From: a virus
Lineage: Duplodnaviria > Heunggongvirae > Uroviricota > Caudoviricetes
Strand: one strand, 5' to 3'
IMG/VR virus record: IMGVR_UViG_2541047913_000007
Length of the DNA stretch: 64,000 nucleotides
Within the stretch, counting starts at the first letter, position 1; every line of letters begins with the position of its first letter. This document shows, one piece after another, positions 3,058 through 3,716 of this stretch. The position numbers and the translations under genes were made by a program. Under the pieces are notes generated by a model. The model saw nothing but the letters and a program-made list of their open reading frames with translations. It had not been told where the DNA came from and did not search any database.

Positions 3058-3687
3058 ATGACCACTCAACTCATCCCTGTGTTTGAAGGTACAATCTCAA
3101 ATGAACCTACGCTTCTGGTGAACGCGCGTGATTTGCATGGATTTTTAGAGGTAGGTAAAGATTTTTCTAACTGGATACGGGCCAGGCTAAACGAGTATGG
3201 ATTCGTAGAAAATTTAGACTACATTCTATTTTCGCCAAATTTGGCGAAAACTCCAGGCCGCCGCCGCAAGGAATACCACCTCACCCTCGACACAGCCAAA
3301 GAGCTTGCGATGGTTGAACGTAACGAAAAAGGTCGCCAGATCCGCCGCTACTTCATCGAGTGCGAAAAGAAACTTCGCAACATTCAGCCAGTACAAGCAG
3401 AACCACAGCCGCAATTCACAGCCGAGGAAATCATCCTCCTTTGCTACATGCAGCTCTGGATGGAAAAAGCCCAGGACCTCAGCAAACACCTGTATCCCAT
3501 CATGAAAGAGCTGAACTCCTCATACACGAACAAGCTGTATGACATTGCGTTTGAGACCATCTACATGGTGACGAAGAACAGAGATGCGTTACTGAGGGAA
3601 GTAACACGTCTCGACATGTCAAGTTCCGTTATCCAACGAGCCATGCCAATGCTGAAAAGCCTGCGGGCAAGGCAATTCGAATTCTGA
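3058..3687 (+). CDS. Phage antirepressor-like protein (AntA-type N-terminal domain plus conserved C-terminal domain)
   Basis: ATG at 3058 with AAAGGAGG 8 bp upstream (the track ORF 2896 start is an in-frame upstream extension); C-terminal roughly 100 aa are near-identical to the C-terminus of the ORF at 46408-47079. Confidence 0.7.
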   Translation: MTTQLIPVFEGTISNEPTLLVNARDLHGFLEVGKDFSNWIRARLNEYGFVENLDYILFSPNLAKTPGRRRKEYHLTLDTAKELAMVERNEKGRQIRRYFIECEKKLRNIQPVQAEPQPQFTAEEIILLCYMQLWMEKAQDLSKHLYPIMKELNSSYTNKLYDIAFETIYMVTKNRDALLREVTRLDMSSSVIQRAMPMLKSLRARQFEF

Positions 3688-3691
3688 AACT

Positions 3692-3716
3692 AAAGGAGCT
3701 TCGGCTCCTTTTTTCA
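3692..3716 (+). terminator. Intrinsic terminator after ant-like gene
   Basis: Hairpin AAAGGAGCTTCGGCTCCTTT followed by T-run. Confidence 0.6.

Follow-up and report, generated by a model that had tools for sequence, protein, structure and literature searches.

The window, a stretch of 64,000 nucleotides from a Caudoviricetes virus (IMG/VR record IMGVR_UViG_2541047913_000007), carries two antirepressor-like genes in opposite orientations, an AntA-type gene at the tail-proximal prophage end and an ORF6N-type gene just upstream of ninB (Table 1). The start of the full-length ant gene at 3055, behind the Shine-Dalgarno (SD) sequence AAGGAGG, is that of the RefSeq gene call in strain EC2. The ORF6N gene encodes 233 aa if read as the longest ORF from 47109 and 222 aa from the ATG at 47079; the latter, which lies behind GGAGG and is the start called in relatives, is the likely one. 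The AntA-type protein matches AntA (PF08346, 92.3 bits; cutoff 27) and P22_AR_C (PF10548, 29.5 bits; cutoff 22.4), and the ORF6N-type protein matches ORF6N (PF10543, 70.9 bits; cutoff 27.8) and P22_AR_C (31.3 bits; cutoff 22.4). All four scores exceed the gathering thresholds, so that heads and tails are as the initial annotation had read them, with a common C-terminal module behind AntA-type and ORF6N-type N-termini. For the gene that this annotation had labelled Roi-like, the Pfam assignment is ORF6N with P22_AR_C. Both proteins fall into PHROG family phrog_377, 'anti-repressor Ant', with E values of 7e-97 (AntA gene) and 5e-85, and 'antirepressor' is for either of them an annotation by homology. 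A sequence search of PDB chains with both proteins returned nothing relevant, that is, no solved-structure relative by sequence. An AlphaFold2 model of the shared tail, built on a 21-sequence alignment, predicts four or five helices at low confidence (pLDDT 63, pTM 0.38). Upstream of the full-length ant gene stands a tandem paralogue that consists of the AntA domain only. It matches the whole length of the 95-residue family phrog_6904, and it is a partial gene according to RefSeq in EC2 and an annotated gene (gp79) in phage POCJ13.

Table 1. Coordinates of the antirepressor-like genes, their leader RNAs and the repeated sequences in the window
Feature	Position	Strand	Remarks
sRNA-Xcc1 family RNA (RF02221)	2395..2483	+	69.1 bits, gathering 53; directly upstream of short AntA ORF
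Short AntA-only ORF, 94 aa, tandem upstream paralogue of ant gene	2524..2808	+	Pfam; phrog_6904
54-nt patch, copy 1	2736..2789	+	100% identical to 3264-3317; 3' end of AntA domain, RKEYHLTLDTAKELAMVE
Second sRNA-Xcc1 family RNA	2932..3017	+	73.4 bits, gathering 53; directly upstream of full-length ant gene
AntA + P22_AR_C 'phage antirepressor Ant' gene, 210 aa	3055..3687	+	Pfam; phrog_377
54-nt patch, copy 2	3264..3317	+	100% identical to 2736-2789
Left arm of inverted repeat	3406..3714	+	last 93 codons (P22_AR_C) of AntA-type gene, stop codon, terminator
Right arm of inverted repeat	46381..46689	-	last 93 codons (P22_AR_C) of ORF6N-type gene, stop codon, terminator
ORF6N + P22_AR_C antirepressor-like gene	46408..47109	-	Pfam; phrog_377
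C4 antisense RNA family (RF01695)	47134..47219	-	67.5 bits, gathering 45; directly upstream of ORF6N gene
isrK family RNA (RF01394)	47245..47323	-	68.9 bits, gathering 50; upstream of C4 element

Judged by nucleotide similarity, synteny and gene content, the element is an stx-less, 933W/Sepvirinae-like lambdoid E. coli prophage in ynfG. Its left flank consists of ynfF, which ends at 1984, followed by a truncated ynfG; all that is annotated at the equivalent position in EC2 is an 84-nt 4Fe-4S gene stub. On the right, the prophage continues past the end of the window. EC2 has a prophage at this site too, which is collinear with positions 1-46860 of the window at 96-99% identity. A mosaic breakpoint relative to EC2 follows at about 46860, inside the ORF6N head. 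The nearest phage records are PhiR5_2 (which lists E. coli K-12 as host), the Sepvirinae phages POCJ13 (Diegovirus), 75/02 Stx and Stx2a_F765 (Oslovirus). The 933W-like traits are nucleotide similarity and synteny with Sepvirinae, a P22-like portal and, downstream of Q, a SASA esterase. The ORFs between Q (44036) and this esterase (42615) are all 97 aa or shorter, and the EC2 annotation lists no toxin gene. In Stx phages this is the place of stx; here it has no toxin ORF and is taken up by two copies of the STnc100 sRNA family (42817-43026 and 43302-43495, both on the minus strand; 130 and 139 bits).

To the right of the ORF6N gene come HigB/HigA, replication genes (DnaC-like and O-like), cII, cro, a cI of the lambda/HK97 type and RecE/RecT-like genes. 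The pair of HigB-like toxin and HTH antitoxin (47327-48006, plus strand) runs divergently to the isrK-C4-ORF6N cassette, and other genes take the place of this neighbourhood in EC2. Within and just upstream of the O-like gene, at 51336-52260, there are direct repeats of 41-49 nt (CCGGGTTAACCCAATCGGCTTCAGGCTGCTGCGGTTGG), which encode a repeated QQPEADWVNPG and are possibly origin iterons. The cII-like gene, between cro and the O-like gene, is interrupted by a 1,311-bp IS3-family element (52598-53908), which resembles IS629/IS1203. This element has terminal inverted repeats TGAACCGCCCCGGGAATCCTGGAGA, a 3-bp target duplication CTG, orfA (52652-52978), orfB (52975-53865) and an ALIL frameshift pseudoknot (52933-53049); its insertion in cII may be polar on pR transcription and thereby cripple the prophage. 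The immunity region (54079-55093) comprises cro (54079-54279, minus strand), cI (54380-55093, plus strand) and, at about 54306-54369, operators of the TATCACCGC type. Its identity with the cI-cro region of phage HK97 is 97.6%, indicating that a short-tailed relative of the Stx phages carries a lambda/HK97-type immunity region.

A repeat search of the window finds only one long inverted repeat, whose arms are the 3' parts of the two antirepressor-like genes. Each arm is 309 nt long, the arms are 95% complementary, and 42,666 nt separate them. MAFFT alignment and a base-by-base count give 293 identical positions out of 309 (94.8%) without a single indel, and the longest perfect runs measure 56, 41, 36, 35 and 32 nt. 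Within 20 nt beyond both arm ends, identity drops to about 20-25%, which is the random level, so the boundaries are sharp. They coincide with the start of a domain and the end of a terminator: the left arm begins at residue 118 of the 210-aa AntA protein, whose Pfam match to P22_AR_C starts at residue 119, and the arms end just past a common terminator hairpin, AAAGGAGCTTCGGCTCCTTTTTT, with its AAAGGAGCTTCGGCTCCTTTTTTT-run. In the right arm a consensus scan places a terminator-like site at 46403-46384, and the identical sequence lies at 3692-3714 in the left arm. The pairwise alignment thus bears out the claim that the two genes have a common 3' end and terminator in inverted orientation. The initial annotation had drawn this repeat at 3370-3716 and 46381-46725 and called it 320 bp long and near-identical; the repeat stands, with its upstream edge moved inwards by about 36 nt, a true length of 309 bp and an identity of 94.8% in DNA and 92/93 in amino acids.

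The two arms bracket Q and the entire late region, as the initial annotation had stated for the structural and late genes, since the genes for lysis, packaging, head and tail lie between them, together with Q and the greater part of the nin region. From the AntA side, the interval contains IbrA/IbrB-like genes, a Panacea-domain gene, a 2,793-aa ORF, tail genes, a capsid gene of the N4-gp56 type, a P22-like portal and the terminase, and it also contains lysis genes, the SASA esterase, the Q-like antiterminator (44036-44662), NinH, RusA, NinE and NinB. Between ant and the tail genes are found the IbrA/IbrB-like pair (3884-5739, plus strand; PAPS reductase/DUF3440 and ParB-like), the SocA/Panacea-domain gene (5828-6352, minus strand) and the 2,793-aa ORF (6503-14884, minus strand), annotated as LPD38 domain-containing in EC2. 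Within the 687-aa tail fibre ORF (26590-28653), 12 copies of a degenerate 51-nt unit form collagen-like Gly-X-Y repeat DNA (26890-27912, minus strand), and the EC2 orthologue is a partial pseudogene by annotation. Both ant loci recur, oriented towards each other as they are here, in PhiR5_2, POCJ13, 75/02 Stx, O104:H4 strains and many commensal or uropathogenic E. coli.

Every ant-type ORF in the window has a structured RNA upstream on its own strand. RNA families were called at the Rfam gathering thresholds, which gives four elements upstream of ant-type ORFs (Table 1), and a promoter-like site precedes isrK at 47359-47330 (TTGACA-18-TATATT; 11/12). The first sRNA-Xcc1 element could form an 11-bp helix with the SD region at 2507-2517 through its CTTCTTATTTG (2446-2456). 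Around the C4 element, TTAGGAAC occurs at 47298-47291 and 47130-47123, and TCAACCG(G) at 47281-47275 and 47098-47090, each motif once on either side; their complements are neighbouring stretches of C4 (47163-47156 and 47182-47170), and the downstream TCAACCGG lies directly against the SD. The candidate pairing partners are TTAGGAAC with GTTCCTAA and CTTCTTATTTG with CAAATAAGGAG. Pairing was assessed by an ungapped helix scan, and RNAduplex on whole pairs of sRNA and leader gave long, uninformative duplexes. The C4-side helices of 8-9 bp have the expected arrangement and are matched or exceeded by shuffled targets in 113/300 and 274/300 cases, and the 11 bp between the sRNA-Xcc1 element at 2395-2483 and its own SD, the one unusual pairing among them, are reached in 10/300 shuffles. 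Because the helices are short and mostly not significant against shuffles, RNA control of these genes is a reading that we infer. The arrangement as a whole suggests self-contained, RNA-gated antirepressor cassettes. Related associations have been described elsewhere: C4/isrK 'immunity RNAs' occur in the same zones as Bro-network genes (PMC10111431), Gifsy-1 has an isrK-orf45-anrP locus (PMC4825925), and APSE phages carry c4, isrK and sRNA-Xcc1 upstream of Bro and ORF6N genes (PMC7313666).

The shared tail is found behind other heads in relatives. A protein search with the 93-aa tail, which also supplied the sequences for alignment, returned mostly partial fragments, among which fusions to AntA, ORF6N and Bro-N are seen. 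The protein alignment shows the same tail alleles behind AntA-, ORF6N- and Bro-N-type linkers, and all three linker types join the tail at an invariant stretch, QFTAEEIILLCYMQLWMEKAQ. In strain STEC17-183, the neighbour of ninB is a gene with Bro-N and P22_AR_C domains. Conversely, phage Stx2a_F765 has the same ORF6N head and upstream RNA region (91% nucleotide identity) followed by a tail without a P22_AR_C match, and this gene lies near the other end of the prophage. Among 75 full-length arms in IMG/VR, 35 have the order AntA-arm-other, 25 ORF6N-arm-NinB, 10 BroN-arm-NinB and 4 AntA-arm-IbrA, and one has too short a flank; the 74 classified arms therefore comprise 39 AntA, 25 ORF6N-NinB and 10 BroN-NinB cases. 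With one tail on AntA, ORF6N and Bro-N heads and an ORF6N head with another tail, these sequence comparisons confirm domain shuffling, proposed in the initial annotation, as the correct reading here, and the phenomenon is already known as the 'Bro network'. Domain swapping in this network is documented, with AntA, ORF6N and P22_AR_C explicitly listed (PMC10111431).

The differences between the arms indicate that the sharing is old. All 16 lie in coding sequence and are evenly spread; 15 are synonymous and one changes H to Q, and the 30 nt made up of stop codon, spacer and terminator are identical in both arms. The estimates of dN/dS (0.014-0.026) and dS (0.20-0.32) are those of old, selected paralogous modules, not of a fresh duplication, since 15 of the 16 differences are synonymous and dS reaches 0.2-0.3. 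By this substitution pattern, both tails are diverged alleles of one module under strong purifying selection. We compared arms across 6 genomes, 2 phages and IMG/VR contigs, where identities for the IMG/VR contigs are ungapped and cover only arms of exactly 309 nt. The results show that arms cluster by locus instead of by genome. Identity among ORF6N-side arms of different genomes is 96.4-100%, and ant arms form allele groups with identities of 98-100% and about 90%. Between the ant tail and the ORF6N-gene tail of the same genome, identity is 94.5-97.4% in the window, EC2, SW071611 and SCU-104 and 90.9% in NCTC9112 and UPEC-245U, and the ant tails of O104:H4 and POCJ13 are only 73-80% identical to the window's arm. 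Because the tail allele at the ant locus varies among relatives in this way, a high-identity inverted repeat is present or absent by allele assortment.

An alternative source of the similarity is intragenomic gene conversion between the two loci, that is, concerted evolution, in place of tail exchange between phages. Several observations point in this direction: this lineage has the same allele type at both loci, where O104:H4 and POCJ13 have different types; the window's ant arm has 96.4% identity with ORF6N-side arms and only 90.3% with the ant arms of NCTC9112 and UPEC-245U; and the tandem AntA copies carry a conversion-like identical tract with a co-varying site in POCJ13. The position of the window's ant arm, nearer to ORF6N-side arms than some ant arms are, implies some past transfer between locus types, either by intragenomic conversion or by exchange between phages, which are indistinguishable here. 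However, the even spread of the 16 differences and the dS of 0.2-0.3 are at odds with conversion, as is the clustering by locus. No identical pair of paralogous arms occurs in the 6 genomes, 2 phages and IMG/VR contigs compared, and identity between ant and ORF6N arms inside one genome (90.9-97.7%) is not above the best identity between genomes (98.4%). Recent homogenisation of the arms is rejected on the clustering by locus and the missing identical pair, and we regard conversion between the loci as an unlikely explanation of their similarity.

The tandem AntA copies are a separate case. The initial annotation had noted that the truncated copy shares an identical patch of about 50 bp with the full-length gene and had suggested gene conversion. 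The patch is real and spans 54 nt at 100% identity, compared with 60% (134/222) over the rest of both AntA coding regions, and POCJ13 has the same A>T variant in both patch copies, which makes conversion plausible. Ant genes that otherwise diverge also keep this patch nearly unchanged. It fits a conversion tract or a recombination junction. In the same region, TTTTTT(C)ATGCCTG is found after a hairpin at 2353-2366, 2876-2888 and 3709-3722, at the start or end of each AntA unit, and delimits a tandem duplication unit of roughly 528 nt, made up of terminator, leader RNA and AntA.

A further possibility is that the repeat is a working substrate of homologous recombination that flips the 42.7-kb late region and gives rise to inversion isomers of the prophage, as the initial annotation had proposed. 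RecA-dependent exchange needs a minimum of roughly 25-30 nt, which the perfect runs of the inverted 309-nt arms exceed, and the prophage encodes RecE/RecT-like (59868-63024) and NinB recombination functions. We searched for recombinant junctions with two queries of 450+309+450 nt each, one joining the AntA head and arm to the ninB side and the other joining the ORF6N head and arm to the ibrA side. Neither junction is found in 5,426 complete E. coli genomes, where the best coverage (63%) is the value given by native loci and the two native junctions are covered in full in 18 and 35 genomes; such finished assemblies show the majority isomer only, rare isomers within a culture being outside their reach. 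The AntA-arm-NinB junction, the sole query run there, is absent from 50,697 phage records. An exact-pattern scan of IMG/VR finds the AntA linker followed by the terminator in 49 contigs, the terminator followed by ninB in 37, and the AntA linker followed by ninB in none, and recombinant flank pairing is seen in 0 of the 74 classified arms. The proposed inversion thus finds no counterpart among E. coli genomes, phage records or IMG/VR contigs.

Prophage repeats do drive inversions in E. coli O157:H7, and this precedent favours the idea; the documented repeats there are at least 5 kb long with at least 98% identity (PMC8743559). Here we observe neither both orientations in the genomes, phage records and contigs searched nor repeats of that size and identity, the arms being 309 bp long, 94.8% identical and perfectly matched over at most 56 nt. 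An inversion would also turn Q and the late operon away from pR-cro-O-P, splitting Q and all late genes from pR-O-P, so the inverted form should be lytically defective and lost from phage populations. Inversion mediated by RecA or RecET is physically possible but should be rare and selected against in phage, and a role of the repeat as a working inversion substrate appears quite improbable to us. The repeat is not a programmed inversion switch. A site-specific invertase switch is rejected as well, because no recombinase is annotated in the segment and the arms consist of coding domains; the annotation of the collinear EC2 region of 50 kb shows no recombinase or invertase gene in or beside the segment.

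The two themes can be joined in one model, a multi-input induction circuit of the two (or three) antirepressor-like genes in which differently RNA-gated heads (sRNA-Xcc1/AntA and C4/isrK/ORF6N) would act through a near-identical tail on one target, such as a lambda-type CI or a host factor, or through tail heteromers, and in which rare tail exchange by RecA or RecET would reversibly disconnect the late operon and Q from pR and thereby lock the prophage at the level of the population. We consider this combination highly improbable, and no sign of a prophage-lock inversion appears in the finished genomes, phage records and viral contigs surveyed. Finally, a chance match or an assembly artefact has a negligible probability, since arms of 309 nt that match at 95% and fall to random-level identity right beyond their ends argue against chance, and the recurrence of the same arms in many independent complete genomes and phage records speaks against both.

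We consider it likely that the inverted repeat is a passive by-product of two paralogous 'Bro network' genes that carry the same allele of one exchangeable module. This module is the P22_AR_C domain of about 93 aa together with its intrinsic terminator, and the conserved stretch at its 5' end, QFTAEEIILLCYMQLWMEKAQ, and the terminator would serve as homology anchors. Occasional tail swaps would occur by homologous recombination between co-resident or co-infecting lambdoid phages, and this prophage lineage would happen to hold the same allele type at both loci. Each protein may be an RNA-gated regulator that modulates prophage induction: a leader RNA of the C4/isrK or sRNA-Xcc1 type would precede a head domain and a helical tail, and this common tail would bind a partner or oligomerise. 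Read as a by-product of module exchange, the repeat is a clean example of how modular exchange among lambdoid phages leaves short, high-identity repeats within one genome. Its significance beyond bookkeeping is small, and such repeats can lead assemblers and readers astray, so that switches are inferred. Were inversion to occur at a measurable frequency, it would give the host a cheap lock on the prophage, with Q and the late genes disconnected from pR. Regulation is the more useful lead: since each ant-type gene has its own leader of the C4/isrK/sRNA-Xcc1 type, these genes could be studied as RNA-gated inputs to the induction of relatives of the Stx phages.

Compared with known systems, the repeat resembles the Gin/Cin/Hin and fim-type segments in that a segment of phage DNA lies between inverted repeats. 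However, the crossover sites of those systems measure about 26-34 bp, whereas the arms here are 309-bp coding domains and the segment of 42.7 kb contains the whole late region. The C4 pairing scheme of P1, a1b1/a2b2, was reportedly described by Citron and Schuster in 1990, a paper cited in PMC7313666. The repeated motifs around the C4 element and their complementarity to it resemble that scheme, with short helices that are not significant against shuffles. As in the immI locus of P1/P7 (c4 antisense RNA-icd-ant) and the isrK-orf45-anrP locus of Gifsy-1 (PMC4825925), isrK and C4 directly precede the ORF6N gene on its own strand. Unlike P1 immI and Gifsy-1, the locus is without an established coupling ORF of the icd/orf45 type, and its AntA genes use leaders of the sRNA-Xcc1 family instead. 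With the inversions of O157:H7, it has in common inverted homologous prophage sequence in an E. coli chromosome that is recombinable in principle; there the repeats lie in different prophages on either side of Ter, whereas here 309 bp are repeated within one prophage and no isomer is observed (PMC8743559). The closest likeness is to the 'Bro network' (AntA, ORF6N, Bro-N, KilA-N, P22_AR_N/C, ANT and Rha), in which the proteins likewise have two domains with interchangeable heads and tails. The original description of this network is said to be that of Iyer, Koonin and Aravind in 2002. Nothing essential distinguishes the present genes from it, and their peculiarity is that the same tail allele stands at two oppositely oriented loci of one prophage.
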